From assembly GCF_016919445.1 (NCBI RefSeq), contig NZ_CP070356.1, positions 3,575,502-3,599,501 on the forward strand: 24,000 nt of DNA. Reading direction: 5' to 3'. This DNA comes from Pseudomonas sp. PDNC002 (lineage in GTDB: Bacteria; Pseudomonadota; Gammaproteobacteria; Pseudomonadales; Pseudomonadaceae). Position numbers and translations under genes: made by a program. Numbering within the stretch: position 1 is the stretch's first letter; each line of letters begins with the position of its first letter. Below, piece by piece: positions 1,027-17,220 of the stretch. The notes beneath the pieces were generated by a model, which was not told the origin of the DNA, did not search any database, and was given only the letters and a program-made list of their open reading frames with translations.

Positions 1027-3198
1027 TCAGAAGTTGACGCTCGCCGTCAGGCGAGCCGTACGCGGCGCACCCTGGAACAGGTAGCCGTCGCCAAAATATT
1101 CACCGACATCGCGCCAGTAGCGCTTGTCGAACAGGTTGTCGACGCTCAGCCGCAGCACGGTCGGGTAGTCGCCGATGCGTGTGCTGAAGCGTGCGCCGGC
1201 GTCATACACGGTGTAGCCGCCGGCCTCTACTGCGCCATCGCGGTCGGCATACTTGGCGCCGCTGTAGCGTGCCGCGCCCAGCAGCGAAAGCCCCGGCACT
1301 TCGGCCAGCGCGTAGTCCGCCTGCAGGCTTGCGCGCAGGCGCGGGACGTTGATCGCCTGGTGGCCTTCGTAGTCGTCCGTGCCGCTGTTCACCACCCGCG
1401 AACGGATCGCCGCGAGGCTGCCGCTCAATTGCAGCGTGGAGGTTACCCGGCCACTGGCGGACAACTCCAGCCCGCTGTTCTTCTGCTGGCCCTGCTGCAC
1501 GTAGGTGAAGGTACCGTCGCCGTTGGGCCGGGCGAACTGGTAGGCCTGGTGGATCTGGAACAGCGCGGCGCTCCAGTCGAAGCCGGCCAGCTCCTGCTTG
1601 ATGCCGAACTCGACCTGGCGTGAGGAGGTAGGCGCCAGGGTGTCGCCGGCGTTGCTGGCGAACCACGGAGCCTCGCCGCCCAGGGACAGGCCCTTGCTGT
1701 AGCTGCCGTAGATCGAGATGTCCGCACGCGGCTTGAAGATCACCGCGCCGTTGGGCAGGAATTCCGCGCGGCGGGTATGCCGGGTGGTGTCGCCGTCGCT
1801 GTCGAAGGTGCGCTCGTCCAGGCGCACCTGGCGTCCGCCCAGCACGACCTGCCATTGCTCATTGAAGGAGATGCGGTCGCTGGCGAACAGGCCGTACTGG
1901 CGGCTGTCGAGGTGGCGATAGCTGTGGCCGGGCTCGCCGTCGAAGGGCTCCACGGCGCCGATGCCGGTGTAGATGTTGCCGGTGCCGACCCACTCGTTGA
2001 GCTCCGGGCGGCTGTCCAGTACACGGCGGAAGGCCGAGGTGCCGATAGTCAGCTCGTGGCGCAGCCAGCCGGTGGCGAACTGGCCGTGCAGGGCGGCTTC
2101 CAGTTCGTCGTTGCGGCGAGTGTCGTCGGGGCTGCGGAAGTCGTAGAGGTCGTAGTCGCCTTCCGGGCTGAAGTAGTTGGGCACCGCCGAGTCGGCGCAA
2201 CTCGCCGCACCATAGCAGCCCCAGGGGAAGGCGCTGTAGTCGTCGATCACCACGCGGCTGCGCGAGGCGCTGAGCGTGCCTGTCCAGGCGTCGTTGAAGC
2301 GGTATTCGAAGCGCGTGTTGAGGTTGAGCGATTCGATGCGTACCGGGTCGGCCCAGCTCTGGTAGCCGATACGGTCGTGCGGGTCGATGTCGTGGGGCAG
2401 CTGCGTACCGCCGAGCAACTGGTAGCCCGGAGCGGAGGGTTGGCGGCGGTTCTGGTACTCGGCGTCGAATTGCCAGAGCGCGTTGGGTGAGAGGTTCCAG
2501 TCCAGTGCCAGGGAGGCGAAGTCGCGTTGGCCGTCGGTGTGGTCGATGTAGGAGCGCAGGTCGTCGTGGGCGAGGTTCACCCGAACGCCGACGGTCTGCT
2601 CGCTGTCCAGCCAGGCACCGACGTCGGTGGCGACATAGCGGCCGCCTTCATCGTCGGTACCGAGGGTCACCGAGCGCACGTCCTGCGGGCGCTTGGTGAC
2701 GTAGTTGATCACGCCGCCCGGCTCGGACACGCCGCTCTGCAGGCCGGACAGGCCCTTTAGCACCTCGACCTGTTCCTTGTTCTCCAGCGCCACGTTCTGC
2801 TCGCCGGTGATGGTGCGGCCGTTGATCTTGTAGCTGCTGGCGGAGTTGAGCGAATAGCCGCGGATCTCGAAGTTCTCGTAGTAGCCCACCGGTGCGTAGG
2901 CCTCGCCGGTGGAGGCGTCGTTCTTCAGCACGTCGCTGAGCAGGCGCGCCTGCTGGTCCTTGAGCAGCGCCTGGTTGAATACCAAGATGGAGGCGGGCGT
3001 ATCGAGCAGCGGGGCTTCGCCGAAGCCACCGACCGAAGCGCGGCCGCTGGCGTAGCTCTCGGTGTCGTGGCCGATCACCGTCACGGTGTCCAGGGTTGCT
3101 GCGTCTTCGGCGTGGCCGGGGCCGCTGGCCAGCAGTACGGCCAGGGTCAGCAGGCTGAGGGGAAATCGCGTGCGCGCGGGGCGCGGCAGGTACTGCAT
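1027..3198 (-). CDS. TonB-dependent outer-membrane receptor (siderophore-receptor-like subfamily)
   Basis: 723 aa. Signal peptide: LLTLAVLLASGPGHA/EDA. Plug-domain motifs: DTVTVIG and VEVLKGLSGLQSGVSEPGGVINYVTKRP. The long beta-barrel ends in the typical terminal aromatic (LTASVNF). AGGAG RBS before ATG 3198. I saw no Fur-box-like sequence upstream. Confidence 0.92.
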   Translation of the reverse strand: MQYLPRPARTRFPLSLLTLAVLLASGPGHAEDAATLDTVTVIGHDTESYASGRASVGGFGEAPLLDTPASILVFNQALLKDQQARLLSDVLKNDASTGEAYAPVGYYENFEIRGYSLNSASSYKINGRTITGEQNVALENKEQVEVLKGLSGLQSGVSEPGGVINYVTKRPQDVRSVTLGTDDEGGRYVATDVGAWLDSEQTVGVRVNLAHDDLRSYIDHTDGQRDFASLALDWNLSPNALWQFDAEYQNRRQPSAPGYQLLGGTQLPHDIDPHDRIGYQSWADPVRIESLNLNTRFEYRFNDAWTGTLSASRSRVVIDDYSAFPWGCYGAASCADSAVPNYFSPEGDYDLYDFRSPDDTRRNDELEAALHGQFATGWLRHELTIGTSAFRRVLDSRPELNEWVGTGNIYTGIGAVEPFDGEPGHSYRHLDSRQYGLFASDRISFNEQWQVVLGGRQVRLDERTFDSDGDTTRHTRRAEFLPNGAVIFKPRADISIYGSYSKGLSLGGEAPWFASNAGDTLAPTSSRQVEFGIKQELAGFDWSAALFQIHQAYQFARPNGDGTFTYVQQGQQKNSGLELSASGRVTSTLQLSGSLAAIRSRVVNSGTDDYEGHQAINVPRLRASLQADYALAEVPGLSLLGAARYSGAKYADRDGAVEAGGYTVYDAGARFSTRIGDYPTVLRLSVDNLFDKRYWRDVGEYFGDGYLFQGAPRTARLTASVNF

Positions 3199-3310
3199 GG
3201 AACGCTCCTGAAAATCGCCGGGGCGTGCGCCGGGAATGCACGGGGCTGAGCCCCTCCCGCGCGAAACGGATGGCCTTGGATGTGAAACGTGATTGCCCGT
3301 GGGCGGGCTG

Positions 3311-4186
3311 TCAGGCCGGAGCTGCTCCGGTGGTCAATGGCAGGGAGGGCTCGGCGGCCCACTCCTGCAGCGAGCCGTCGTAGATCGCGACTCGGGTTTC
3401 CCCGGCCAGCGTCAGGGCCAGCGCGAGGGCAGCGGCGGAGATACCGCCACCGCAGTACAGCAATAGCGGCGGCTCGGCCTGTCTTAGCCCGCTGAGGGCT
3501 TCGCTCAGTGCCGCGCCGCGCCGGTAGCGGCCGTCGTCGTCGAACAGGCTGCGCGCCGGTAGGTTGCTGCTGCCGGGAATGTGCCCACGGCGGGCGTAAC
3601 GGGTGACGGCGCTGCCGTCGAAGAGGGCGGCGGACAAGGCGCAGACCAGTGTGCCCGGTGCTTCTCCCGCGACGACTTTCCCCACGCCGTGGCGGTCGAT
3701 CCAGAACCCATCGAGGTAGCGCGTGGCGGCGGATAATGTTCCCGTGCGTACGCTGGGTTCATCGCCTTTCTCCAGCGCTAGGCCAGCCGCAATCCAGGCG
3801 CGCAATCCGCCATCGAGGACCGCTGCCGCGATGCCGAGGCTGCGCAGCATCCACCACAGGCGTGCGGCCCAGAAGCCGTCACTGCGGTCGTAGATCACGA
3901 TCAGCGAGTCGTCGTGGACGCCCAGTCGTTGCAGGGAATCCAGGGCCGATCGGGCATCCGGCAGGGCGAAGCTGAAAGACGCCTGCGGATCGACCAGCTC
4001 GCCCAGCAGATCCGCGTGGCGAGCGCCGCGAATGTGCCCGGCGAGCCAGCCGGCCTTGCCGGATTCGACGCGATAGTCGCCATCGAATTCAGGCGCCGCC
4101 AGTTCCACGCTGGCATCCAGCAGGCACAGGCGCGGGTCGTCCAGCGCGGTGGCCAGCCAGCCTACGGTGACCAGGGGTTCGCGCAT
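3311..4186 (-). CDS. Tandem-rhodanese sulfurtransferase (thiosulfate/3-mercaptopyruvate sulfurtransferase-like)
   Basis: 291 aa. The N-terminal VTVGWL...LLDAS motif and the C-terminal active-site loop LLLYCGGGISAA are typical of two-domain rhodaneses. The ATG at 4186 lies 1 nt after the stop of the upstream kinase gene. Confidence 0.8.
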   Translation of the reverse strand: MREPLVTVGWLATALDDPRLCLLDASVELAAPEFDGDYRVESGKAGWLAGHIRGARHADLLGELVDPQASFSFALPDARSALDSLQRLGVHDDSLIVIYDRSDGFWAARLWWMLRSLGIAAAVLDGGLRAWIAAGLALEKGDEPSVRTGTLSAATRYLDGFWIDRHGVGKVVAGEAPGTLVCALSAALFDGSAVTRYARRGHIPGSSNLPARSLFDDDGRYRRGAALSEALSGLRQAEPPLLLYCGGGISAAALALALTLAGETRVAIYDGSLQEWAAEPSLPLTTGAAPA

Positions 4187-4187
4187 C

Positions 4188-5333
4188 TCAGTTCACCTTA
4201 GCGGCCAGTTGGCGAAGGTGATTCAGCAGGCGCTGGCCTTCGGCTTCGAGGAACCAGCGGGTGTGGCCGATCAGGTAATTGTCATAGGCCAGCGAAGCGC
4301 TCTCGGCCGAGCCGAGGATGCCGTGGAAGTAGATGACCTCGGACAGCGCGAAATCCGTGTGCACCAGTGGCAGCAGCGCGGCCAGCGCGAGCAGATCGCC
4401 GCGGCGCAGAGGGCGCACGCTGGTGTAGCCCTGCAGCAGGGCGTCCAGCGCATCGAGGTCGGCGACGGCGGCGCGTCCCTGGTCCAGCTCCAGCCAGGGC
4501 ACCAGATTGCGCTCGATGGCGGTGGCCAGGTCGAAGAGGGCGAAGGTGCGATCGCTCAGTCCGAAGTCCAGCACAGAGACCACCTGCGCCTGCGGGCCAT
4601 CCTCGCTCCACAGCAGGTTCGAGGCGTGCCAGTCGTTGTGGGTCCAGAGTGCCGGCTGACGTTGCAGGTAGGGCAGCAGCTCCCGTTGCAGCGGCAGGTG
4701 CAGTTCGCTGAGCGTTTCCTTCCAGGGGCGTGCTTGCAGGTACTCCGCCAGGGCGGGTGCTTGGTCAAATGTCGCTTCGATGGCGGCCAGCGGGTCCTGC
4801 GCGCCGAACAAGTCGAGGTTGCTGACCAGTACGCCGGCGCTGCGCGAAGGCGCGGCGAAACCTTCGGCGGCACGGTGCAGTTTCGCCAATGCAGCGCCAG
4901 CGGCGAAGGCGTGGGCGTTGTGCTGGAAGGGCGTCCAGGACAGCGCATCGCGGTACAGGTCCAGCCCTTCCGCCTTCTGGTGAACTTCGTAGGTCCAGCC
5001 GCCCAGTTCGATAGCGCTGCGGCCGTATCGATCCCGCAGTACCTGCGCGACCGGCGCACCATGTCGGGCCAGGTGATCGAGGAAGGCGTGTTCTTCCGCC
5101 AGCCAGTCAGCCGTGCGCACGCTGGGGTGATGGCGCTTGACGAACAGCGGGCCGCTGGCGGTTTCCACCAGCGCGGCGGCGGAGAAGGGCCGCGGGCTGT
5201 GCCAGGCCAGGCGCGCCTCGTCGCCGGCCTGCGGGAAGTCTTTCAACAGCTCGGCGACCTCCGCTTCGGTCAGCGCTGGCCAGTCGGCCTCCACCGGCTC
5301 CAGGCCCATGCCGTGGCTCAGGCGTTTTGTCAT
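4188..5333 (-). CDS. APH/choline-kinase-fold phosphotransferase (homoserine-kinase-type-II / thiamine-kinase-like family)
   Basis: 381 aa. Brenner-type catalytic motif LWTHNDWHASNLLW followed by VLDFGLSD (the DFG-like metal-binding Asp). ATGA start/stop overlap with the upstream THI5-like gene (5330-5333). Confidence 0.8.
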   Translation of the reverse strand: MTKRLSHGMGLEPVEADWPALTEAEVAELLKDFPQAGDEARLAWHSPRPFSAAALVETASGPLFVKRHHPSVRTADWLAEEHAFLDHLARHGAPVAQVLRDRYGRSAIELGGWTYEVHQKAEGLDLYRDALSWTPFQHNAHAFAAGAALAKLHRAAEGFAAPSRSAGVLVSNLDLFGAQDPLAAIEATFDQAPALAEYLQARPWKETLSELHLPLQRELLPYLQRQPALWTHNDWHASNLLWSEDGPQAQVVSVLDFGLSDRTFALFDLATAIERNLVPWLELDQGRAAVADLDALDALLQGYTSVRPLRRGDLLALAALLPLVHTDFALSEVIYFHGILGSAESASLAYDNYLIGHTRWFLEAEGQRLLNHLRQLAAKVN

Positions 5334-6250
5334 GCTGGATTCTCCACTTGCCAGGCATTGCTGGTGGCGCCGCGCCAGATGTCCGGGGCGCGCAGCACAC
5401 CATGTTCATGCAGCCACTGGGCATAGGGCTGCAACAGTTCTTCGCGCTGTTCGCCCCAGCGGCCGTCGTGCAGCCAGCTGGGCGCGATGCGCCGCAGCGA
5501 TTCTGCCAGCATCTCGTGGGGAAAGTAGGGAATGGTGCGTTCATAGACCGGCAGTGCGGCTTCCGGATCGGCTGCCGCCGCGAGGAACCCCTGCGCGGTG
5601 ACGGCGAGGAAGCGCCGGGCGATCTCGGTGTTGGCGTCGAGCCAGTCTTCGCGGGCACCCAGCAGATAGCTGTGGTAGGGCGGCGCGCCGATCTCGTCCA
5701 CCGGCAGCACCACGCGCCGTTCGTTGGGGATCGAGCTGGGCAGCAGCGCTTCCCAGGCCCAGTAGCCGCCGAAGCTGGCGTCGGCCAGGCCGGCGGCCAG
5801 GTCTTCGGGGCGCAGCTCGCGGAAGCCGGCATCCACCAGTTCCACCGCATCGGGATCGCCGCCATCCTGGCTCACCAGATGCCGCACCATGGCCAGGCCG
5901 CGCGGGGTCGGGTTGAGCGCCAGGCGCTTGCCCTGCAGGTCGCGGGGCCGGCGGATGCCGCTGTCGGTGAGGGTCTGGATCGATTCCAGGCCGCGATGGT
6001 TGATGGCGGCCACGCCGATCAGCGGCTGGCCCAGTTCTCGGCGTACCAGCAGGCGGTTGCTGGGGAACACGCCGAAGGCAGCGTCGCCGCGCAGCAGGTG
6101 CTCCAGAGTGTCGCCGTGGTAGGGGTCGTGCACCACCAGTTCGACCTCCAGCCCCGCCTCGCGGTACCAGCCGCGTTCACGGGCGAGGTAGAAACCGGCC
6201 GAATTGGGCCAGGGGTGGAAGTATTCGAGCATGACCCTCAGGGCGAACAT
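5330..6250 (-). CDS. NMT1/THI5-like (periplasmic-binding-protein fold) protein without signal peptide
   Basis: The ORF 5330..6265 begins with TTG. The ATG at 6250 (MFALRVMLEYFHPWPNSAGFYLA...) has a GGAG 9 nt upstream and is the preferred start. The sequence resembles cytosolic THI5/NMT1/SsuA-like proteins (GLEVELV..., LQGKRLALNPTPRG, GGYWAWE). There is no N-terminal signal sequence. Confidence 0.7.
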   Translation of the reverse strand: MFALRVMLEYFHPWPNSAGFYLARERGWYREAGLEVELVVHDPYHGDTLEHLLRGDAAFGVFPSNRLLVRRELGQPLIGVAAINHRGLESIQTLTDSGIRRPRDLQGKRLALNPTPRGLAMVRHLVSQDGGDPDAVELVDAGFRELRPEDLAAGLADASFGGYWAWEALLPSSIPNERRVVLPVDEIGAPPYHSYLLGAREDWLDANTEIARRFLAVTAQGFLAAAADPEAALPVYERTIPYFPHEMLAESLRRIAPSWLHDGRWGEQREELLQPYAQWLHEHGVLRAPDIWRGATSNAWQVENPA

Positions 6251-6314
6251 GAAACCTATCTCCAAAACGGCCGGCGGCCGATGACTGCGATGGGGCGTAT
6301 TCCACGGGAGAATA

Positions 6315-6330
6315 ATTGGTATATACCAAT
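6315..6330. promoter_or_regulatory. Perfect 16-bp palindrome ATTGGTATATACCAAT; candidate HutC/GntR operator
   Basis: The palindrome was read directly from the sequence. Its core GTATATAC fits the HutC-subfamily GT-N-TA-N-AC operator consensus. It sits in the AT-rich 276-bp divergent intergenic region between the THI5-like gene (minus) and mtnB (plus), next to TATAAT/TATAAA-like hexamers. Confidence 0.5.
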
Positions 6331-6541
6331 ATGATTTTCACTGGTTTTTATAATCTGAAGGCATAAAAAATTCCGGCGGCAGGGTGACACGAGGCGCACA
6401 TGATGCAAGCCCGGAATCTGGATGAATCGCTCTGGCTCGGGGTGCGGCGGGTTATGACCTCATGCGATTAAGGTATTTAGGGCTGCGACCGGCCGTGGAT
6501 AGAGTGGCGATCCTTTCCGACCTCAACCTCCGTGGTTATCC

Positions 6542-7168
6542 ATGACCGACATTCGCCAACAACTCACCCAACAGATCATCGAGGCCGGGCGCTTCCTTTA
6601 CAGCCGCGGCTGGTCGCCGGCCACCAGCAGCAATTACTCGACGCGCCTGGCGGCCGATCGTGCGCTGCTCACCGTGTCCGGCAAGCACAAGGGCCAGCTT
6701 GGCATCGACGATGTGCTGGAAACGGACCTCGCCGGCAATAGCCTGGAGCCGGGCAAGAAACCCTCGGCGGAAACCCTGCTGCATACCCAGTTGTACGCCT
6801 GGCGCCCGGAGATCGGCGCGGTGCTGCATACCCATTCGGTGAATGCCACGGTGCTCTCGCGCCTGACCGTTGGCGACCGGCTGGAGCTGGAAGACTACGA
6901 ACTGCAGAAGGCTTTTTCCGGCGTCACCACCCACGAAGGCCGCGTCACCGTGCCGATCTTCGACAATGACCAGGACATCGCCCGCCTGGCGGCCAAGGTG
7001 CAGCCTTGGCTGGACGCCCACCCGGACTGCCCCGGTTACCTGATTCGTGGCCACGGCCTGTACACCTGGGGCGCGCGGATGAGTGATGCGCTGCGCCAGA
7101 TCGAAGCCTTCGAATTCCTCTTCGAATGCGAGCTGAAAGTCCTGAGCCTTCACGGTGGTGTGCGCTGA
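6542..7168 (+). CDS. mtnB: Methylthioribulose-1-phosphate dehydratase (class II aldolase/adducin fold, methionine salvage)
   Basis: 208 aa. The N-terminus QLTQQIIEAGRFLYSRGWSPATSSNYSTRL...LLTVSGKHKGQLG...SAETLLHTQLY...AVLHTHS closely matches my recollection of Pseudomonas MtnB, including the His metal ligands. Confidence 0.88.
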   Translation: MTDIRQQLTQQIIEAGRFLYSRGWSPATSSNYSTRLAADRALLTVSGKHKGQLGIDDVLETDLAGNSLEPGKKPSAETLLHTQLYAWRPEIGAVLHTHSVNATVLSRLTVGDRLELEDYELQKAFSGVTTHEGRVTVPIFDNDQDIARLAAKVQPWLDAHPDCPGYLIRGHGLYTWGARMSDALRQIEAFEFLFECELKVLSLHGGVR

Positions 7169-7336
7169 GCGAGGGACTTGGCGGATCGGCTTCCTGCTGT
7201 TCGGCGCGTTGTCCATGCGCGGCGATGCACCGCCGCCCTCAGGTGGCCGGGATGTTTGCCTGTAGCGCCGTCAGGTAGGCGCGCGAGCTCCCTGCGCGGC
7301 GACTCGCTGGAACGCGCCCGCTCCCGAGTGGACCGA

Positions 7337-7990
7337 TTACCGAATCCCCAGCCCCGCCAGCAGGACGTCCAGGCCCAGTTCGAAGGTCCGGTCGAAGTGC
7401 TCCGGCTGGAAGTATTCGCCCGCGCGGGACACCAGGGGGAAGTCTTCCGCGAGTTCTTCATCGGTGATGGGGCTGAGCGACGAGGTGCCCTCGGCGTAGC
7501 CATTGATCTCGTCCAGCGTGGCGCCCAGCACGTAGTAGCCGAGCACGCGGAAGCCTCGCGCGGCCGCCTCGTCGTCCAGACCGGCCGCCACGAAGCAATC
7601 GAGGATCTCGCCGAGGAACGCCACCCCGGTCCGTGAGTTCCAGCGATGCAGTGCCAGCCAGGTGTACAGGCGCGCGTGTTGCCGCGCCAGTTGCCGCCAT
7701 TGGGCGACCAGTTCCCTGAGGCGAGCGCCCGCTGTTTCGTCGCGGGAGGGGAACTGCACGGTGGAGAGCACCCGGTCCACCAGCGCGTCGAGGATGTGGG
7801 CCTTGCTCGGGAAGTAGTTGTAGATGCTCATCGCCTCGCATCCCAGGGCCGTGCCCAGGCGGCGCGTGCTGAAGCCTTCCAGGCCCTCCTGCTCGATGAG
7901 GCGTAGCGCCTCGGTCTCGATGCGCTCGTGTGTCAGGGGTTCGCGAGCGGGTGACTGCGACTCCTCGGTGATTGGCTTCTTGCGTGGCAC
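7337..7990 (-). CDS. TetR/AcrR-family transcriptional regulator
   Basis: N-terminal TetR HTH: IETEALRLIEQEGLEGFSTRRLGTALGCEAMSIYNYFPSKAHILDAL. The track ORF start (8029) is a TTG lying next to the operator. The GTG at 7990 has a GAGGGG RBS 6 nt upstream and is the preferred start (VPRKKPITEE...). Confidence 0.85.
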   Translation of the reverse strand: MPRKKPITEESQSPAREPLTHERIETEALRLIEQEGLEGFSTRRLGTALGCEAMSIYNYFPSKAHILDALVDRVLSTVQFPSRDETAGARLRELVAQWRQLARQHARLYTWLALHRWNSRTGVAFLGEILDCFVAAGLDDEAAARGFRVLGYYVLGATLDEINGYAEGTSSLSPITDEELAEDFPLVSRAGEYFQPEHFDRTFELGLDVLLAGLGIR

Positions 7991-8039
7991 GTGGCACCCC
8001 TCGAATAAAAGACTTGCAGTGTAAATCAACTTCTGCCAG

Positions 8040-8069
8040 CTTACATCGTAAGTTTACTTACGGTGTAAG
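8040..8069. promoter_or_regulatory. Tandem palindromes CTTAC-N3-GTAAG x2 (CTTACATCGTAAGT tt ACTTACGGTGTAAG); candidate TetR operator
   Basis: Two 13-bp palindromes (8040-8052 and 8057-8069) together form a 13/14 inverted repeat. They lie in the 94-bp divergent region between the tetR-like gene and the MAPEG gene. Confidence 0.55.
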
Positions 8070-8084
8070 TATGAAGGGGGAAAG

Positions 8085-8264
8085 ATGATCGAGATACCGA
8101 TAACGTCGTGTGTGGCAGCCGTGTCTGCGATTGCGCTGACTGGTCTGTCCGTGAATGTTTCCAGGTTGCGGATGCGCTATCGCGTCGGCCTTGGTCACGG
8201 TGGTCAGAAGGCGCTGCAGCTGGCCGTGGCGCCGGTCAATCTTTTCCTCAAAATTATCAATTAA
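8085..8264 (+). pseudogene. Truncated YecN-like MAPEG-family membrane protein (only the N-terminal ~50 residues are recognisable)
   Basis: ATG 8085 is preceded by AGGGGG. The translation is MIEIPITSCVAAVSAIALTGLSVNVSRLRMRYRVGLGHGGQKALQLAV... This matches the YecN/MAPEG N-terminus (..VVRLRMQYRV.YGDGG...LQ.AIR.HGN..EY). The expected HGNxxEYxP motif and the last ~70 aa are missing. The frame runs into the G-free tract and stops at 8262-8264. Confidence 0.6.
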
Positions 8265-8877
8265 ATTTCATAACTATCGACTCTATAAATAATTTTTAAC
8301 TTCATTTTAATTATTGTCTTTCTTATTTTTATTTTTCCATCCTAATTCCATTTACATCCATCTATATTCTCATCATTTAAATATATATTTATAAAATCAT
8401 CATCTCAACCATACAACACCTCTACCTTATAATCCATCATTCTCCCAATATATTCTATTTAAAGATTATATATTTATATTCCTACTCTCTAAACCTATTT
8501 TTCTTTAACATCTATATTTCATAACACAATTTCATTTAATAACTATATATTAATTCCCCAATTATTTATATAATAACTTTTACAATATCTACATTATTCA
8601 AATTATACTCATATCCAATTTCATCCCTCATCAAAATTAACATTTCATAAATACATACTCATTATTCTTTTATTCATAATAACCCCACCCAAAAAAATAA
8701 AACCAAAAAAAAACCTCCCCAAAAAAAAAAAACACCCCCAAAAAAAAAAAAAAATATAAATAAATATTTTCAAATTAAATTTTTATATATATATACAATT
8801 ATACCCTATATATATATATCCCCCCCCCCCCCCCCCCCCTATATAAATATATATACCCCCCCCACCCCCCCCCAATT
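8238..8877. other. G-depleted AT/C low-complexity tract with terminal homopolymer runs (artefact or anomalous insertion)
   Basis: I count only three G on the + strand between 8238 and 8877 (at 8279, 8316 and 8464). The flanks are typical high-GC sequence. Runs: A9 8705-8713, A12 8721-8732, A15 8740-8754, (TA)n around 8787-8819, C20 8820-8839, C8 8856-8863, C9 8865-8873. The tract contains no ORF, no terminal inverted repeats and no periodic repeat unit. Confidence 0.9.
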
Positions 8878-9226
8878 CGTATTTTCGTCGAGCGACGCAA
8901 CTGACCCTGCCACGCCGCGCCCCGGAGAGCGCTCCAGACACCTCGCACCCGAGAGCCCTCCCGAGTGCGAGCCCTCTCCGGATACACGAAGAACCTCCGC
9001 TGCCTACCTGAAAATCCGGCGACAGGCCGGGTTTCGCCCATCCGCGCCGCCTGGGCCGTTCGATGCGCCTGGGGCGGCGATTCGCGATGTCACGCCGAGT
9101 TGTTCAGGGCCCGCTTTGCCTGCGGGTCGCGCAGTGGCGCATGCCTTGCTCAAACCGCTGTGATACTTGCCGTTCCCACTCGCTCAGCATGGGCTTTCTA
9201 CACGGCGCTCAGGTTGACGAAATCCA

Positions 9227-9309
9227 TACAGATTTACATCCCTTGGTTGATTGATTAGGTTCGCCTTGTACCGCAGTTGATCAATATATTGATGGATAAT
9301 CAATGTGTT
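9227..9309. promoter_or_regulatory. AT-rich promoter region of the DUF1302 gene, with motifs shared with the 13816-13895 divergent promoter
   Basis: TACAGATTTAC (9227-9237), palindrome TTGATCAA (9277-9284), ATATATTGAT (9284-9293), inverted repeat ATTGAT-N5-ATCAAT (9288-9304) and ATCAATGTGTT (9299-9309). The same words recur at 13816-13895. Confidence 0.45.
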
Positions 9310-9398
9310 GATCGGCGACTTCGCCCAGGGCTGCTGTGCTGTGCCGGTCATCGAGAACCGGATTCTGCTCCCATAAGCACAATAACAAGGTGGAATAC

Positions 9399-11171
9399 GT
9401 GGAAAGAACCTTCTACCGCCGGCGCCTGCCCGTCGCGCTCGGCAGCCTCGTTCCTGCTCTTCTCGCATCCAGCGTCCAGGCGGTGACGTTCGAGGTCGGG
9501 GAGATCCAGGGGCAGTTCGACTCGTCCCTCTCCGTTGGCCAGAGCTGGGCGATGAATGATCCGAACCCGAACTTCATCAGCAAGGCCAATGGCGGACGCG
9601 GTGACTCCCAGACCACCGACGACGGCCGCTTGAATTTCAGGAAGGGCGAGACATTCTCGAAGATCTTCAAGGGGACGCACGACCTGGAATTGAAGTACGG
9701 CGACTGGGGGGCCTTCCTGCGAGGGAAGTACTGGTATGACTTCGAGCTGAAGGACGGGCACCAGCACCTCTACGACATCCAGGACAACGGCCGTGATCAG
9801 GCGGCGCGCTCCTCGGGTGCGCAGTTCCTCGACGCCTTCGTCTACCGCAACTACGACCTGGCCGGGCAGCCCGGCTCGGTCAGGCTGGGCAAGCAGGTCG
9901 TGAGCTGGGGGGGCAGTACCTTCATCCAGGGTGGCATCAACAGCATCAACCCGCTGGATGCCAACGCGCTGCGGCGTCCGGGTTCCGAGTTGAAGGAGGG
10001 GCTGATCCCGGTGCAGATGATCTATCTGCAACAGAGCCTCAGCGATGCCGTCAGCGTGGAAGGTTTCTACCAGCTGAAATGGCAGGGCACCGTGGCCGAT
10101 AACTGCGGGACCTTCTTCGCCAGCTCCGATCTTCCAGCCAAGGGCTGCGACGACCGCTACGTGCTCCAGGGCAAGGACATCAAGCCCGGCGCCTCGGACA
10201 ACAGCGGGCAGAACGGCAACACCATTTTCCTGCCGCGCGGACCGGACCGCGAACCGCGCGATGGCGGGCAGTACGGCCTGGCGCTGCGGTGGTTCGTGCC
10301 GGAGCTCAACGACACCGAGTTGAGCCTCTACTGGATGAATTATCACAGCCGCATGCCGATCGGCAGTTCGACGATGACCACCGCCAACCCGTTTACCGCG
10401 CCGCGTTTCGGTGCCGCGTCGGCGACCTATTTCCTGGAGTACCCCGAGGACATCCGCCTCTATGGCCTGAGCTTCAGCACCAACATCGCCGGCGCGGCTG
10501 TGGAAGGCGAGATCAGTCACCGACCGAATATGCCGCTGGGCTTCGACGACCTGATCTACGCCACGCTGCGCCTGTCGCCCGTCGTGCCGACGCCCATCGA
10601 GAACTCCGGTATCCCCGGCGACACCATCCATGGCTACAAGCGGGTGCCGTTCACCCAGGTCCAGACCACCGTCACCAAGACCTTCGACCAGGTCATGGGC
10701 GCGAGCCGCCTGACGCTGGTTGGCGAGGTTGGCTACAACCACATCTCCGGGATCGACGACGGCACCTACGGCCACCTGCGCTATGGCCGAGCCAGTCCTT
10801 TCGGGCCCGGCGAGTATTACGGCGCCAACGGCAATGACCTCTGCACCACGCTGCTCAGCGGTCGCCCCGAGTACTGCAACAACGACGGCTTCTACACCCG
10901 CAATTCCTGGGGATACCGCCTGCGCTCGGCGCTCACCTACAACGGCGTCATCGGCGGACTCGACCTCACGCCGAACCTGGCCTGGTCCCATGACGTCCAG
11001 GGTTACGGGACGAACTTCACCGAGGGCGGCAAGGCCGTCAGCGTCGGGCTGAACGCCGTTTACCTGTCCAAGTACAACGCCAGCATCAGTTACACCGATT
11101 TCTTCGGTGGCAAATACACCACCAACACCGATCGCGACTTCCTGAGCGTCAGTTTCGGCGTCAGCTTCTGA
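9399..11171 (+). CDS. DUF1302-family outer-membrane beta-barrel protein
   Basis: The track ORF (9336) starts at a GTG with no RBS. The GTG at 9399 follows AAGGTGG by 5 nt and gives a signal peptide (VERTFYRRRLPVALGSLVPALLASSVQA/VTFEVG). DUF1302 hallmark motifs are present: DDGRLNF.KGE, LGKQVVSWGGSTFIQGGINSINPLDANALRRPGSELKEGLIPV, and the C-terminal DRDFLSVSFGVSF. Confidence 0.88.
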   Translation: MERTFYRRRLPVALGSLVPALLASSVQAVTFEVGEIQGQFDSSLSVGQSWAMNDPNPNFISKANGGRGDSQTTDDGRLNFRKGETFSKIFKGTHDLELKYGDWGAFLRGKYWYDFELKDGHQHLYDIQDNGRDQAARSSGAQFLDAFVYRNYDLAGQPGSVRLGKQVVSWGGSTFIQGGINSINPLDANALRRPGSELKEGLIPVQMIYLQQSLSDAVSVEGFYQLKWQGTVADNCGTFFASSDLPAKGCDDRYVLQGKDIKPGASDNSGQNGNTIFLPRGPDREPRDGGQYGLALRWFVPELNDTELSLYWMNYHSRMPIGSSTMTTANPFTAPRFGAASATYFLEYPEDIRLYGLSFSTNIAGAAVEGEISHRPNMPLGFDDLIYATLRLSPVVPTPIENSGIPGDTIHGYKRVPFTQVQTTVTKTFDQVMGASRLTLVGEVGYNHISGIDDGTYGHLRYGRASPFGPGEYYGANGNDLCTTLLSGRPEYCNNDGFYTRNSWGYRLRSALTYNGVIGGLDLTPNLAWSHDVQGYGTNFTEGGKAVSVGLNAVYLSKYNASISYTDFFGGKYTTNTDRDFLSVSFGVSF

Positions 11172-11181
11172 GGAACAAACA

Positions 11182-12540
11182 ATGAGAAATACGATTCCGG
11201 CAGCGGGCCTGCTGTCTTTCTGCCTGTCTTTCATCAGCCCTGTTTCCCTGGCCGCGGTCGATGCGGCCAAGGCGGCAGAGCTGGGCTCCATACTGACGCC
11301 GGTCGGCGCCGAGCGTGCGGGCAACGAGGCGGGAACGATCCCGGCCTGGACGGGCGGGTTGGCGCCTGACGCGGGGCAGGTCAGGGACGGTACACACGGC
11401 GATCCTTTCGCCGGCGAGAAGCCGCTGTTCGTCATTACCCCGGCTACCCTCGAGCGCTACAAGGAGCGCCTGAGTCCCGGCCAGCTCGCGCTGTTCCAGC
11501 GTTACCCGGACACCTACCGCATCCCGGTGTACGCCAGCCATCGCACGGCGGCCTGGCCGGACAGCGCGTATGCCGCCGCCAAGCGCAACGCCACCAGCAC
11601 AGAGCTGGTCGCCGGTGGTAATGGCCTGAAGGACTACCAGGCGCCGCTGGCATTCCCGATTCCGCGCAACGGCCTGGAAGTGATCTGGAACCACATTACC
11701 CGTTACCGGGGTGGCAGCTTCGATCGCGAGACCAGCAGCTACCTGGTGACGCCCAACGGCGACTACTCCTGGAAGACCGAGCGTGACCGCCTGGCCTACA
11801 GCAACCAGCTCACCGACTACGACCCGGAGCGCTCGAAGAACATCCTCTACTACTTCACCTCGCTGAATATCGCACCGGCGCGGGATGTGGGCGATGTGCT
11901 GCTGGTCCACGAGACCCTGGACCAGGTCGCCGAGCCGAGAATGGCCTGGCAGTACAACGCCGGCCAGCGCCGGGTGCGTCGCGCACCCCAGGTGGCCTAT
12001 GACAGCCCCGGCCCCGGCAACCTGCGCACCAACGACCAACTGGACATGTTCAACGGCTCGCCCGATCGCTACGACTGGCAGCTGGTGGGCAAGCGCGAGC
12101 TCTACGTTCCCTACAACAGCTTCCGCCTTGCCGACCCGGCCAACAGCCCGGATAAACTGGTGCAGAAGGGGCACATCAACCAGAACCTGACGCGCTACGA
12201 ACTGCACCGCGTCTGGGAGGTGATCGCCACCCTGAAGCCGGGCCAGCGCCACGTCTATGCCAAGCGGCACCTGTACATCGACGAGGATACCTGGACCATT
12301 CTCGAAGCCGATCACTACGACAATCGCGGGACGCTGTGGCGCGTTTCCGAGAACCACACGCTGCCTTTCTACGACCAGAAAGTGGTGATCAGCGCAGGGG
12401 AGATGACCTACGACCTGACCTCCGGGCGCTATCTCGCCAACGGCATGTTCAACCAGATCAAGGATGCTTACCGCTTCGGCCTCAAGGCCAAGACTTCCGA
12501 CTTCACGCCCGCCGCCCTGCGCACCATCGGCATTCGCTGA
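11182..12540 (+). CDS. DUF1329-family (LolA-like / outer-membrane lipoprotein-sorting-like) periplasmic protein
   Basis: 452 aa. Signal peptide (LSFISPVSLA/AVD). DUF1329 hallmarks: LTPVGAERAGNEAGTIPAWTGGL, FPIPRNGLEVIWNHITRYRG, ELYVPYNSF. GAGGA RBS. It starts 10 nt after the DUF1302 stop. Confidence 0.88.
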   Translation: MRNTIPAAGLLSFCLSFISPVSLAAVDAAKAAELGSILTPVGAERAGNEAGTIPAWTGGLAPDAGQVRDGTHGDPFAGEKPLFVITPATLERYKERLSPGQLALFQRYPDTYRIPVYASHRTAAWPDSAYAAAKRNATSTELVAGGNGLKDYQAPLAFPIPRNGLEVIWNHITRYRGGSFDRETSSYLVTPNGDYSWKTERDRLAYSNQLTDYDPERSKNILYYFTSLNIAPARDVGDVLLVHETLDQVAEPRMAWQYNAGQRRVRRAPQVAYDSPGPGNLRTNDQLDMFNGSPDRYDWQLVGKRELYVPYNSFRLADPANSPDKLVQKGHINQNLTRYELHRVWEVIATLKPGQRHVYAKRHLYIDEDTWTILEADHYDNRGTLWRVSENHTLPFYDQKVVISAGEMTYDLTSGRYLANGMFNQIKDAYRFGLKAKTSDFTPAALRTIGIR

Positions 12541-12566
12541 AGCCAGGAAAGCAGCGGCAGGGAAGC

Positions 12567-12600
12567 AGGCCCGCCTCGTGAGAGGCGGGCCTTGTCGTTT
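12567..12600. terminator. Bidirectional hairpin terminator between convergent genes
   Basis: AGGCCCGCCTC (12567-12577), loop GTGA, GAGGCGGGCCT (12582-12592), followed by TGTCGTTT. This is an 11-bp perfect GC-rich stem between the DUF1329 stop (12540) and the regulator stop (12600). Confidence 0.6.
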
Positions 12601-13790
12601 CAGTCCGGCAGGGTGCCGGTGTAGCGGGCGCGCGGACGCAGCAGCGGGTACTGGTGATACTGCTCGCTGGCATGGGCAATCCAGCCAATGGCACGGCCGA
12701 CGCCGGCGAGGGCGATCTCCTGGCCCTGCAGGCCCAGTTTGCGGCCGACGAAGGTCAGCAGGAGGATGAAGTCCATGGGCTGCCCGGTCAGCTCCTCGGC
12801 GACCGTGGCTGCCTCCAGCAGGCTGCGGAACTCCGCATCCTTGGCGAACAGCCGATGCAGGCTCTGCAGCAGGCAGGTCGCGCGGGGATCGCTTTCGCCG
12901 TGCTGATTGGAGCCAAAGCCCAGGATGGCGCCATCCTCGCGGAAGCGCTGGACGATCGGGTCCGCCGGATGGCGGGCGGTGCAAATGTCGTCCAGCAGGC
13001 GTGCCACCGACTCGTTCCTGCCGTAGGCCAGGTGCCGGCCCCGTGACGTGGCGATGCCCACAATCGCGGCGTAGTAGGGCGTTATGCCGGTGTTCGCGGC
13101 CGCCCTCACGCTGTAGGTGGTGGGGTCGAGTTCATGGTCGATGGACAGGATCAACACCTGGCGGATCAGGTCGGCCAGCGCCTCGTTCACCCCCAGCGAT
13201 TCGGCGATGAACCGATGCAGGGGACGGTCATCGGGCACAGCTGCGCCGACCAGCAACGCAGCGAACCAGCGAACCACATCGACGCCGGTGCGGGCATAGC
13301 CTTCCACCGAGAGGTCGTGGGCGCGCGGGTTCTCACGCTCCAGCAGCGGGAACAGAGCGATCAGTTTTTCTCCCACGGCCAGGTCGCCCAGCGCCTTGAG
13401 CAGGGCGCCGGTGCCTTTCGGACGACGCGGCAGCGGCGCGTCGAAGACGCCTTCCGCCTGCCACATCAGTTCCGCTACCGCCTCGACGCTGGCGCTCGCG
13501 GCCAGTTGCGTCACGTCGTGCCCCCGGTAGTACAGCCCCTTGTCGGTCAGCAGCGTGATCGAGCTCTGCGCGCCAACGCGGGGAGCGTCGGTTCCGGATC
13601 CTGCTGTTGGCTTGAGCTTGCGCAGGCGTTCGATATCCGCCGCCCAGTACTTACGGCTGCGCGAGCCCTCGACCTTGAGCGAGCGGATGTTCTTCCGGCT
13701 GACGTAGGCATAAAGCGTCGGAAGGCTGATGCCGAGCGCGCTGGCGGCCTCGTCCGCGCTGAGGTAGAGATCGTCTTCTGGGGTGGACAT
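12600..13790 (-). CDS. Excisionase/MerR-type HTH fused to a citrate-synthase-like domain (putative ligand-sensing transcriptional regulator)
   Basis: 396 aa. The N-terminus LSADEAASALGISLPTLYAYVSRKNIRSLK is an HTH_17/excisionase-type DNA-binding motif. Residues ~75-396 align by eye with small citrate synthases (SITLLTDKGLYYRGHDVTQLA; LILSIDHELDPTTYSVRAAANTG; GFGSNQHGESDPRA; GRAIGWIAHASEQY; RPRARYTG). The catalytic GFGH motif reads GFGS. ATG 13790 has a GAGG RBS. Confidence 0.8.
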   Translation of the reverse strand: MSTPEDDLYLSADEAASALGISLPTLYAYVSRKNIRSLKVEGSRSRKYWAADIERLRKLKPTAGSGTDAPRVGAQSSITLLTDKGLYYRGHDVTQLAASASVEAVAELMWQAEGVFDAPLPRRPKGTGALLKALGDLAVGEKLIALFPLLERENPRAHDLSVEGYARTGVDVVRWFAALLVGAAVPDDRPLHRFIAESLGVNEALADLIRQVLILSIDHELDPTTYSVRAAANTGITPYYAAIVGIATSRGRHLAYGRNESVARLLDDICTARHPADPIVQRFREDGAILGFGSNQHGESDPRATCLLQSLHRLFAKDAEFRSLLEAATVAEELTGQPMDFILLLTFVGRKLGLQGQEIALAGVGRAIGWIAHASEQYHQYPLLRPRARYTGTLPD

Positions 13791-13815
13791 GGCGGCCTCG
13801 GATTGATGAATTTCG

Positions 13816-13895
13816 TACAGATTTACTATTTATGGGGGCCTATATATCTTGCTGTCAACATCAACAGAATACATATATTGATCAATGTATGTGTT
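13816..13895. promoter_or_regulatory. Divergent AT-rich promoter/operator region between the HTH-citrate-synthase-like regulator and the DUF1446 operon
   Basis: The 123-bp intergenic region (13791-13913) contains TACAGATTTAC (13816-13826), ATATATTGAT (13873-13882), the 10-bp perfect palindrome ATTGATCAAT (13877-13886) and ATCAATGT..TGTGTT (13881-13895). These are the same words as in 9227-9309. Confidence 0.5.
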
Positions 13896-13913
13896 CGCCA
13901 GACGGAGACACGC

Positions 13914-15278
13914 ATGGAAATTCGTGTTCTGGCGCCCAATGGCGCCATAGGCACCGGCTTCAAGGAAAGTTCGTTCGAGCGCGGGGTGTCGCTTGCCCCC
14001 CATGTGATTGCCTGTGACGCCGGTTCGACCGATTCGGGCCCGGCTTACCTGGGCAGCGGCAAGGCGCGGCTTTCCCGCGAAGCTTGCAAGCGCGACCTGC
14101 GCCTGCTCCTGCTGGCGCGTGACCGCTTGGGCGTTCCGCTGATCGTCGGGTCCTGCGGCACCAGCGGGAGGGACGCAGGGGTCAACTGGATGGCGGAGAT
14201 CGCGCTGGAGATCGCGGACGAGGAGGGGCTCAACTTCCGCCTCGCGCTGATCTACTCCGATCAGGACGGCGAGTACCTGAAGCAGCGCCTGGCCGATGGA
14301 CGCATTCAGGCGTTGCACCCGGCGCCGCCGCTCGACGAGCAGGTCATCGAACGCAGCCATGTGGTCGGCATGATGGGAACCGAGGCGCTGTCCGAAGCAC
14401 TGGATCAGGGCGCCGAGGTGATCCTGGCGGGCCGTGCCAGCGACTCGGCGCTGTTCGCCGTGGTGCCCGAGCGCCTCGGCGCCGATCGCGGGTTGGTCTG
14501 GCACGCGGCGAAGACCATCGAGTGCGGCGCGGCCTGCTGTGTCACGCCGGCTGCCGATGGCCTGATCGCGTATATCCGCGAGGACCATTTCGAGATCGAG
14601 CCGCTGGACCCGCAGGCGCGCGTGACGCCCTTGTCCATCGCCGCGCACACCCTCTACGAGAACGCCAACCCCTTCCTGCTCACCGAGCCGGCCGGCATCG
14701 TGGACACCGAGCACGCGGTATATACCGCGACGAGCGAGCGCAGCGTGCGGGTGAGCGGTTCGAAGTTCCATCCGGCACAACGCTACAGCATCAAGCTGGA
14801 AGGTTCCGAGCCGGTGGGCTTCCAGTCGGTGATCATCGGCGGTATCCGCGACCCGAAAATCTTCCTGGGCCTGGATCGGTTGATCCCGATGGCGAAGCAG
14901 TATTTCCAGCAGCGCGTCGCCCAGTTGTTCGGAGGCCGGCTTGGCCCCGAGGACTACGACATCAGCTTCCGCAGTTATGGTCGCGGCGCGGTGATGGGTG
15001 AACTGGAGGTCGAGCGCGACAGCGTGCCGATCGAAGTCGGGGTGCTGATCACCGTCACGGCACCGACGCAGGAGCTGGCGAGTAAGATCGCCACCTTCGT
15101 CAGCCATGTCAGCGCGCACCTGCCGGTGCCCGGCTACGAAGGCATCATCAGCACCATCGCCTATCCGTTCTCGCCGCCGTACCTGGAACGAGGCGCCGTC
15201 TACCGGTTCAGTCTCAACCACGTGCTGTTCCCCGACTCGCCCAGCGAAATGTTCCGTCGCAAGATGATCGAGGTGTAA
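13914..15278 (+). CDS. DUF1446 / AtuA-family protein (acyclic terpene utilisation AtuA N-terminal domain homologue), function unknown
   Basis: The track ORF (13134..15278) is open far upstream. The ATG at 13914 follows GGAGA by 5 nt and gives MEIRVLAPNGAIGTGF...ACDAGSTDSGPAYLG...IVGSCGTSG..., which is typical of DUF1446. The upstream part of the track ORF is the antisense of the regulator gene. Confidence 0.8.
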   Translation: MEIRVLAPNGAIGTGFKESSFERGVSLAPHVIACDAGSTDSGPAYLGSGKARLSREACKRDLRLLLLARDRLGVPLIVGSCGTSGRDAGVNWMAEIALEIADEEGLNFRLALIYSDQDGEYLKQRLADGRIQALHPAPPLDEQVIERSHVVGMMGTEALSEALDQGAEVILAGRASDSALFAVVPERLGADRGLVWHAAKTIECGAACCVTPAADGLIAYIREDHFEIEPLDPQARVTPLSIAAHTLYENANPFLLTEPAGIVDTEHAVYTATSERSVRVSGSKFHPAQRYSIKLEGSEPVGFQSVIIGGIRDPKIFLGLDRLIPMAKQYFQQRVAQLFGGRLGPEDYDISFRSYGRGAVMGELEVERDSVPIEVGVLITVTAPTQELASKIATFVSHVSAHLPVPGYEGIISTIAYPFSPPYLERGAVYRFSLNHVLFPDSPSEMFRRKMIEV

Positions 15279-15281
15279 TCC

Positions 15282-15593
15282 ATGACTCAACTCTTCGAAC
15301 TCTGCAGCCTGATCCGCTCCAAGAACGCCGGCCCGTTCATGCTCACCTTCGACCTGATGTTCGCATCGGCGGAGAGTTACCAGCGCGCCAAGCGGACCCA
15401 GCCCATCACCCGTGAGCTGATCTCGCGCATTTATCGCCAGCCGGAGGACGACATCACGCTGGTTTACCACGACGCGGCACAGGCGATAAAAATCTCCTTT
15501 CCCAGGCCGGTCTTCCAGGGCGAGCTGCACGACAGCGATTGCTACGGCGGTCAGCAATACGTGCCGCTGATGGGCATCACGGTCGCCGAATGA
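15282..15593 (+). CDS. DUF4387 protein (equivalent to the AtuA C-terminal ferredoxin-like domain)
   Basis: 103 aa: MTQLFELCSLIRSKNAGPFMLTFDLMF...AIKISFPRP. It starts 3 nt after the DUF1446 stop, with GAGGTG RBS. In full-length AtuA proteins this domain is fused to DUF1446, so the two genes read as a split AtuA. Confidence 0.75.
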   Translation: MTQLFELCSLIRSKNAGPFMLTFDLMFASAESYQRAKRTQPITRELISRIYRQPEDDITLVYHDAAQAIKISFPRPVFQGELHDSDCYGGQQYVPLMGITVAE

Positions 15594-15630
15594 TCACCTT
15601 CGATTCGCACAACAAGAATAAGGAATGAAC

Positions 15631-16920: not shown

Positions 16921-16963
16921 GCAAGAGCACTTACCGTCTCACTCCAGTGCTGCTCCACCATTG

Positions 16964-16985
16964 ACCCGCTTCGGCGGGTTTTTTT
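16964..16985 (+). terminator. Rho-independent terminator of the DUF1446-DUF4387-CitMHS operon
   Basis: ACCCGC-TTCG-GCGGGT stem-loop (16964-16979) followed by a T7 run, 44 nt after the transporter stop. Confidence 0.75.
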
Positions 16986-17220
16986 ATGGCGCTCCATGGC
17001 TTTCGCGAGTGGCCTCGGACGCAATCGGCGCAGCGACCTTCGAGCCCGGCGGATGTACGGTCGGCAAATCCTCTGAACTATCGCGGCGGGGATGATTCCA
17101 CCGAGGGAGCGTCCGCCACTCTGGCGTTTCGCCGAACCGTGGGGTGACGACAGCGCCGGCCCGTTGCTGGCGCCGCGAATCCTCGATGCGCAGGGGCACC
17201 GCTGCCCCGGGAGATGCAGG

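Follow-up and report, generated by a model that had tools for sequence, protein, structure and literature searches.

A nearly G-free 640-nucleotide tract in the Pseudomonas sp. PDNC002 chromosome is probably uncorrected long-read noise

Results

A G-free tract truncates a MAPEG gene

We analysed a stretch of 24,000 nucleotides (nt) of the Pseudomonas sp. PDNC002 chromosome (the window, whose numbering is used throughout), in which a tract of 640 nt almost devoid of G (8238-8877) cuts off a gene of the MAPEG family. This gene starts at 8085 and is transcribed divergently from a TetR gene. To the right of the tract, past a non-coding segment, lies a block of genes headed by a DUF1302 outer-membrane protein gene (Table 1).

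According to a first-pass annotation made from the letters alone, the left junction of the tract truncates the MAPEG (yecN-like) open reading frame (ORF), and the missing C-terminus lies nowhere to the right, as if sequence had been replaced and not simply interrupted. Comparison with relatives bears out both points. In tblastn searches, the MAPEG proteins of relatives matched the window over residues 1-48 with 56-73% identity, the match ending at 8228, and the DNA homology seen by blastn with the related loci L005 and L007-L014 stopped at 8228-8233. An intact MAPEG gene of 125-131 amino acids (aa) was present in every relative examined, and the divergent TetR-MAPEG pair is kept in Leptothrix, Rubrivivax, P. 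solani, P. tohonis, Aquipseudomonas alcaligenes and P. nitroreducens. The 78 missing residues (49-126) were found by tblastn in no frame anywhere in the window, and by these alignments the tract replaces MAPEG sequence instead of interrupting it, overwriting or bridging what truly comes after codon 48. A full-length MAPEG product (about 125-131 aa, including the RAHGN..E region) is thus lacking at 8085, where only residues 1-48 remain and the conserved RAHGN reads APVN. The bases found in place of the RAHGN codons read like an indel-ridden copy of them, in a segment too short to tell from chance.

The reading frame opened at 8085 runs into the tract and encodes 48-51 MAPEG residues followed by NLFLKIIN and a stop codon, which are supplied by the first 27 nt of the tract. 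Pfam does not recognise this 59-aa ORF. In a clustering of about 15 billion proteins its GenBank entry, QRY77214.1, stands in a cluster of its own, and it is a spurious product created by the tract.

The same ORF places the anomaly in the public record. Accession numbers run on across the tract, from mtnB (QRY77212) through the 59-aa ORF (QRY77214) to the DUF1329 gene (QRY77215) and the citrate synthase gene (QRY77216). Because the ORF that reads into the tract is a PDNC002 protein at NCBI and the accessions are consecutive, the anomaly was already in the deposited genome, and we rejected the idea that the sequence had been added after deposition; the tract and both gene blocks belong to the PDNC002 record. 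A figure of '80 genes apart' drawn from the accession series was dropped, the mtnB neighbourhood also differing between species. The PDNC002 chromosome is a single contig of 6,393,486 bp deposited as 'complete', and this single-contig assembly makes long-read sequencing likely. Proteins of the strain turned up in NCBI-derived sources only, and in none of the Logan run assemblies. A literature search found no primary paper on the strain.

Table 1. Coordinates of the features discussed, in the window and in the two viral contigs that carry comparable tracts
Feature	Positions	Strand	Evidence or description
Window (PDNC002)
TetR/AcrR regulator, 217 aa, intact	7337-7990	-	Pfam TetR_N and TetR_C_1; 100% identical to the PDNC002 'TetR/AcrR family transcriptional regulator'
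N-terminal 48 codons of the MAPEG gene, last stretch homologous to relatives	8085-8228	+	tblastn, DNA alignment
59-aa ORF, GenBank 'hypothetical protein JVX91_16515'	8085-8264	+	Exact match to QRY77214.1 / WP_205335275.1
Garbled junction	8229-8240	+	GCGCCGGTCAAT in place of the relatives' CG(T/C)GCCCACGGCAA(C/T), coding for RAHGN
Tract, phase 1	8238-8677		440 nt of three-letter sequence: A.35, T.44, C.20, 3 G
Tract, phases 2-4	8678-8877		C-words alternating with A7/A9/A12/A15; TA-rich block; then C20, (TA)n, C8AC9, AATT
GC-rich, non-coding, C-skewed DNA, PDNC002 only	8878-9205		328 nt; begins CGTATTTTCG
Conserved upstream (promoter/operator) region of the DUF1302 block	9206-9398	+	blastn/MAFFT against L006 and L168
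DUF1302 outer-membrane protein gene, intact, first right of the tract	9399-11171	+	Pfam PF06980, E = 1.6e-170
Viral contigs
L033 tract (IMGVR_UViG_3300041964_000043)	6172-6702		531 nt; A197, C162, T164, G8; contig 62% GC
L017 tract (IMGVR_UViG_3300041964_000076)	~2350-5550		3.2 kb; A894, C1428, T900, G88; 107-kb viral contig

Composition of the tract

The 640 nt comprise 248 A, 237 T, 152 C and 3 G. The first-pass annotation had reported three G (8279, 8316 and 8464), a GC skew close to -1 and ordinary high-GC flanks. The base count is exact, and the tract has a GC content of 0.20-0.24 and a skew of -0.92 to -1.0, where the flanks have about 0.65 and about 0; at 40-nt resolution the change is abrupt on either side. 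Its longest G-free runs measure 414 nt (8465-8878) and 147 nt (8317-8463), and no other run of at least 60 nt without any one base exists in the window. With a G frequency of 0.33 in the window, chance is ruled out for the 414-nt run. Replicating Pseudomonas DNA could not have such a composition, with 3 G in 640 nt and abrupt edges.

The tract is not uniform. Its phase 1 (8238-8677) cannot be separated statistically from independent three-letter draws, as judged against shuffled sequences by run count (z = 1.5), compressibility (z = 0.4) and repeated 7-mers (z = 0.7). By contrast, 8678-8877 is strongly non-random (run count z = -6.3, repeated 7-mers z = 13.8), a collapse into A, C and TA runs: A7 at 8691, A9 at 8705, A12 at 8721, A15 at 8740, C20 at 8820, C8 at 8856 and C9 at 8865, with (TA)n blocks between the homopolymers. 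The progressive degeneration described in the annotation, from A9, A12 and A15 to (TA)n, C20, C8 and C9, is accurate in every detail. The annotation had also pointed to loosely recurring words, and ATTTCATAA does recur within the tract at the places it gave. We rejected this word as a motif and attribute its recurrence to chance, because repeated 7-mers in 8238-8677 do not exceed those of shuffles.

The tract lacks biological signals

No ORF lies within the tract, and codon periodicity is absent from it (chi-square p = 0.45-0.49, with 0.49 for phase 1; the neighbouring genes give 1e-13 to 1e-21). Terminal inverted repeats, a target-site duplication and direct repeats across the junctions were sought and not found. 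Since there are no repeats across the junctions and no ORF in the tract, the hallmarks of an insertion sequence are rejected; of the terminal repeats, duplicated target and transposase gene that define an insertion sequence or transposon, the tract has none. Indeed, no reverse transcriptase, transposase or integrase is encoded anywhere in the window. Repeat analysis revealed no true repeat/spacer or tandem periodicity, only homopolymer-driven pseudo-repeats at 8694-8873, and nothing of the kind that makes an array of clustered regularly interspaced short palindromic repeats. The absence of ORF, inverted repeats, target-site duplication and periodicity, all noted in the annotation, was therefore confirmed. 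An Rfam search of the tract returned no match, and the G-free strand can pair with itself through A/T only.

Several derivations of the tract from native DNA or from library molecules were also examined. When the MAPEG 3' ends of relatives were recoded by G>A, G>T or G>C, they did not align with the tract: the ungapped identity was 0.21-0.36, with no consistent excess over shuffles, and the period-3 signal was absent. Dropout of the G channel from a true sequence was rejected, C amounting to 20-24% where about 48% would be expected from 65% GC DNA. The tract does not come from such DNA by G>A conversion either, because T makes up 37% of it and 18% of the whole window. Its composition is thus unobtainable from 65% GC DNA by deleting or converting G, and the marks of base-converted native DNA, whether through deaminase hypermutation or bisulfite-like conversion, were not found in it. 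Comparison of the junctions with adapters (Oxford Nanopore ligation, rapid and PCR; SMRTbell; Illumina; Nextera) gave no score above the null. In particular, the 10-mer TCTTTTCCTC at 8240-8249 matches the SMRTbell hairpin with a score of 20, but null scores average 18.2 and their 95th percentile is 23, and we do not take the 10-mer for a hairpin remnant. A palindromic 'missed adapter' chimera was rejected too, the right flank not being the reverse complement of the left.

Two comparable tracts occur in one long-read assembly

We then asked whether such tracts exist elsewhere. Public sequences were scanned for long runs of not-G bases (H) anchored on C14, A14, C5A9 or (TA)7, a design in which 14 fixed bases are needed. 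Among 2.9 million viral contigs, two internal A/T/C tracts were found outside AT-rich genomes, L017 and L033, and both come from one dataset, IMG 3300041964. The remaining matches were poly-C contig ends, poly-A blocks, and AT-rich giant-virus or phage DNA. Like the window tract, L017 and L033 are virtually G-free, embedded in ordinary DNA, and without ORFs or codon periodicity. In all three tracts G fades gradually past the left junction and reappears abruptly where the tract ends on the right; all three are also poor in the AC dinucleotide, which is a weak bias.

The likeness to L033 extends to the order of the phases. In these two tracts the fading of G takes up the first 120-230 nt (120 nt in L033) and random-like A/T/C sequence comes next. 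Long A-runs begin at a fractional offset of 0.73 in L033 and 0.71 in the window tract, the A/C phase lasts to about 0.80 in both and is followed by a TA-rich phase, and the terminal C-runs lie at 0.96-0.99 and 0.91-0.99, respectively. Each of the two ends with a C-run, followed within two bases by TTCGTA and then by normal DNA; in the window this hexamer spans the junction with the right flank. L033 also cuts off a gene, a DNA methylase ORF (5404-6045, minus strand) that has lost its N-terminus to the tract; at its other end the tract stops 8 nt short of the stop codon of another ORF (6710-7222, minus strand). L017, on the other hand, is five times longer than the window tract and richer in C, with C-runs of up to about 54 nt, and ordinary coding DNA resumes on its right. 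Homology of sequence between the window tract and L033 or L017 was considered and rejected as not significant: composition is common to all, and the phase order is shared with L033. No replicate of the L017 tract was found in other assemblies. A further difference is that both siblings come from metagenome contigs of low coverage and the window tract from a 'complete' isolate genome.

IMG 3300041964 is the long-read biocrust assembly described in PMC12634412, and was built by metaFlye v2.4.2 from PacBio RS II, Sequel and Sequel II reads. The Sequel II reads are called HiFi in that paper. However, the original biocrust study reports that a single Sequel II cell yielded 108 Gb in 19.1 million reads and that read length averaged about 3 kb across all libraries, and by these statistics the reads appear to be uncorrected subreads, not consensus reads.

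Embedded G-free tracts are specific to certain datasets

A scan anchored on C5A9 (H80-C5A9-H80) of 241 million metagenome records matched at least 80 loci, of which 80 were fetched. Most of the 80 matches listed come from two Joint Genome Institute (JGI) assemblies, Ga0179591 and Ga0179593, whose contigs look error-rich. Like the window tract, the tracts of these assemblies are G-free, of low complexity and embedded in ordinary DNA. However, they are made of two letters (A/C, with T and G nearly absent) where the window tract has three, and they span 190-6060 nt, with a median of about 500 among the 80 matches listed. Because the matches to the C5A9 pattern concentrate in few datasets, we conclude that embedded G-free tracts are specific to certain datasets and are not spread across organisms.

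Some other matches are of a different kind. In the set of loci L048-L127, L054 has an A/C tract directly followed by a G/T tract. A CA-rich, G-poor tract of 930 nt (L069 4906-5835, L105 4911-5840) is 99.4% identical in two metagenomes, and for this reason strongly G-poor low-complexity DNA can be real, although the CA-rich case has a low-GC context and differs in look. On the strand examined, the whole 2,986-nt record L113 (RCNI01012357.1) is G-free (A.43, C.31, T.26); its complexity is ordinary, and it resembles the product of a bisulfite-type conversion. Finally, two viral contigs of IMG 3300044699 contain poly-A blocks of about 0.5-1.4 kb with more than 90% A (L034 12171-13610, L046 9551-10080), which are probably another dataset-specific artefact.

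The two flanks belong to blocks with variable neighbours

Comparison with L006, L168, the other loci, plasmids and the window itself gave no counterpart of the non-coding segment at 8878-9205; it shows no codon periodicity and no protein similarity to the MAPEG or DUF1302 neighbours in relatives. Conservation resumes further on: the region upstream of the DUF1302 block is 84.6% identical to that of L006 and 86.3% to that of L168, both alignments starting exactly at 9206. From there, the two relatives match the window at 85-86% identity over a block that comprises the DUF1302 and DUF1329 genes, a citrate-synthase-like gene, AtuA, DUF4387 and CitMHS, and the left-hand context of this block differs from relative to relative. 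The closest relatives, about 90-96% identical in protein, show no synteny across the tract site. By these alignments, the tract lies at a junction of blocks whose neighbours vary between species.

Discussion

Altogether, we consider that the tract is probably noise in one long read, beyond the reach of polishing, and not the biology of the organism. The tract is non-coding, has no homologue among plasmids and phages and has a composition that is not genomic, and its signature recurs in unrelated sequences of one pipeline, on two sibling tracts. It is because L017 and L033, which bear this signature, share one PacBio/metaFlye assembly that we favour an artefact, which had also been the leading explanation of the first-pass annotation and is supported as well by the absent biological hallmarks. 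In such a scenario, a burst of base-calling noise in one raw long read, probably of the PacBio continuous type and either chimeric or the sole read bridging a gap, would have been taken by the assembler as backbone. No other read would align to the noise, and consensus polishing would then correct the flanks and leave the 640 nt untouched, after which the genome would have been deposited as 'complete'. Flye-type assemblers build a draft from single-read stretches, then polish it with the reads that align. The proposed mechanism fits because the locus consists of full-length flanking genes, a garbled dozen bases at the left junction, and then non-sequence. We infer that the PDNC002 tract arose in the same way as those of L033 and L017, and that the true genome would have an intact or differently truncated MAPEG gene here.

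This scenario has a counterpart in the literature, since assemblies are known to suffer from raw long reads that are chimeric or that contain high-error regions (10.1101/674036). Read scrubbers such as DASCRUBBER and yacrd deal with segments of this sort, which the window tract resembles as an unsupported stretch of non-biological composition at a break in a conserved gene, between well-polished flanks. However, neither a G-free three-letter signature nor ordered phases are, to our knowledge, described for published low-quality read segments, and our literature search found nothing useful on 'hallucination' by base-callers. Other observations speak against an artefact. The rest of the window looks accurately assembled, all genes at 9206-16987 being full length by comparison with relatives, and in a high-coverage isolate polishing normally removes noise bursts, unless they sit at a single-read join. 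Neither junction carries adapter sequence. The likeness to L033 is one of composition and order, with a global alignment only about 2.5 z units above block shuffles, and the siblings number two. Long-read assemblies may, moreover, be alone in being able to carry low-complexity DNA, in which case enrichment is not proof. Finally, the PacBio/metaFlye combination is documented for the sibling assembly only.

The explanations that treat the tract as real DNA have to be set against this. It is unlikely, in our view, that a deletion or rearrangement removed the MAPEG 3' end and that the break was sealed by untemplated synthesis rarely using deoxyguanosine triphosphate, be it by a terminal-transferase-like or Abi-type polymerase or by capture of its single-stranded product. 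A real rearrangement junction is plausible at a site between blocks with different neighbours in every relative, and the first 440 nt resemble random polymerisation, while the G-free strand has a directional trend. AbiK indeed synthesises random-sequence DNA that exceeds 500 nt in length and, with one deoxynucleoside triphosphate (dNTP) withheld, yields three-letter products, but it uses all four bases when given four dNTPs (PMC3177184). Its product is therefore like the window tract in being long, random and, if one dNTP is missing, three-letter; it is unlike the tract in containing four bases when these are available and in being protein-linked single-stranded DNA, for which integration is not known. 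The random-like, G-excluding phase 1 is accompanied by no such polymerase gene in the window, from which reverse transcriptase, transposase and integrase are all absent. We know of no chromosomally integrated case of such a polymerase product. In addition, the same phase order in L033, an unrelated PacBio contig, would be unexpected from independent enzymatic events, and a chromosome that replicates would not keep C20, A15 and (TA)n stable. The corresponding overall proposal, that the tract is a real 640-nt template-independent filler excluding deoxyguanosine and that the biocrust siblings record the same process, assembled by long reads only, is improbable. Insertion of horizontally acquired AT-rich or low-complexity DNA, for example a eukaryotic fragment, with loss of the MAPEG 3' end, is very unlikely: real G-poor tracts do exist, such as the 930-nt CA-rich one of L069/L105, and AT-rich viral genomes hold G-free stretches of 200-600 nt, but these natural examples occur in low-GC contexts, not in 65% GC DNA. 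The statistics of the tract are those of random draws followed by a collapse, not of the microsatellite type, it has no mobility features, and comparison with plasmids and phages yielded only chance, AT-rich matches, no tract-specific scan of viral, metagenome or genome contigs having been run.

Two further possibilities would leave the flanks truly adjacent or the tract deliberately made. Real DNA of similar length might have been systematically misread because of heavy modification, damage or a lost dye channel, the tract then being a distorted rendering of the true sequence. In this direction point the length of the tract, comparable to that of the missing MAPEG 3' end together with an intergenic region, the 12 nt before it that look like a garbled native motif, and the gradual fading of G after the left junction in all three tracts. 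Nevertheless, the failure to match G-recoded MAPEG 3' sequence, the deficit of C relative to what deletion of G would leave and the lack of codon periodicity make a misreading of this sort very improbable. G-less transcription cassettes of several hundred bp are a laboratory tool, and a cassette, barcode or watermark could in principle have been placed in the strain. The classical G-less cassette, however, is C/T-rich and without long homopolymers, unlike the tract, and a design would not end in A15, C20 and (TA)n. No cloning scars, markers or vector matches were seen, 7300-9900 has no plasmid match, and the sibling tracts lie in environmental metagenome contigs, so that engineering is hardly credible.

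If the tract is indeed uncorrected read noise, its consequences go beyond one gene. A 'complete' genome very probably holds 640 nt that are no true sequence; it may also conceal a misjoin or lack a segment. Protein databases have received a spurious entry (QRY77214.1 / WP_205335275.1 and the UniRef100 entry), and the truncated MAPEG gene could pass for a pseudogene. By our scans, this class of error recurs in at least one public long-read assembly. A cheap screen is available, since in otherwise balanced DNA any stretch from which one base is missing for some 150 nt or longer would flag such an error; it would be of use in comparative genomics and in the training of sequence models on public genomes. 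Should the artefact reading be wrong, the tract would be evidence that a product of untemplated DNA synthesis on a large scale had become fixed in the chromosome of a bacterium, a remarkable event.

Other features of the window

The TetR-MAPEG pair (7344-8233 in the window; L005, L007-L014 and L019-L021) stands in differing contexts in PDNC002, in the P. solani/tohonis/alcaligenes group and in P. nitroreducens, and from these comparisons it behaves like a small portable module. Downstream of the pair, those relatives have a conserved protein of 139-157 aa without a Pfam match.

In the block to the right, the DUF1302 product is 99.8% identical to PDNC002 WP_240201777.1 / QRY82436.1. The start calls at NCBI differ, with 581 aa for WP_240201777.1 and 562 aa for QRY82436.1, for 590 aa in relatives, and the GenBank accession QRY82436.1 is out of series with those of the neighbouring genes. 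In P. multiresinivorans (L168, CP048833.1), a second, inverted DUF1302/DUF1329 pair lies at 13837-17057, just downstream of the first block, with 66-69% DNA identity to the pair of the window. Finally, the region upstream of the DUF1302 gene, which is kept in three species, contains clustered half-palindromes of the TTGATCAA or TTGAT..ATCAA type (gttgatcaatatattgatggataatcaatgtgttgatc), mainly at 9277-9313, and these look like putative operator sites.

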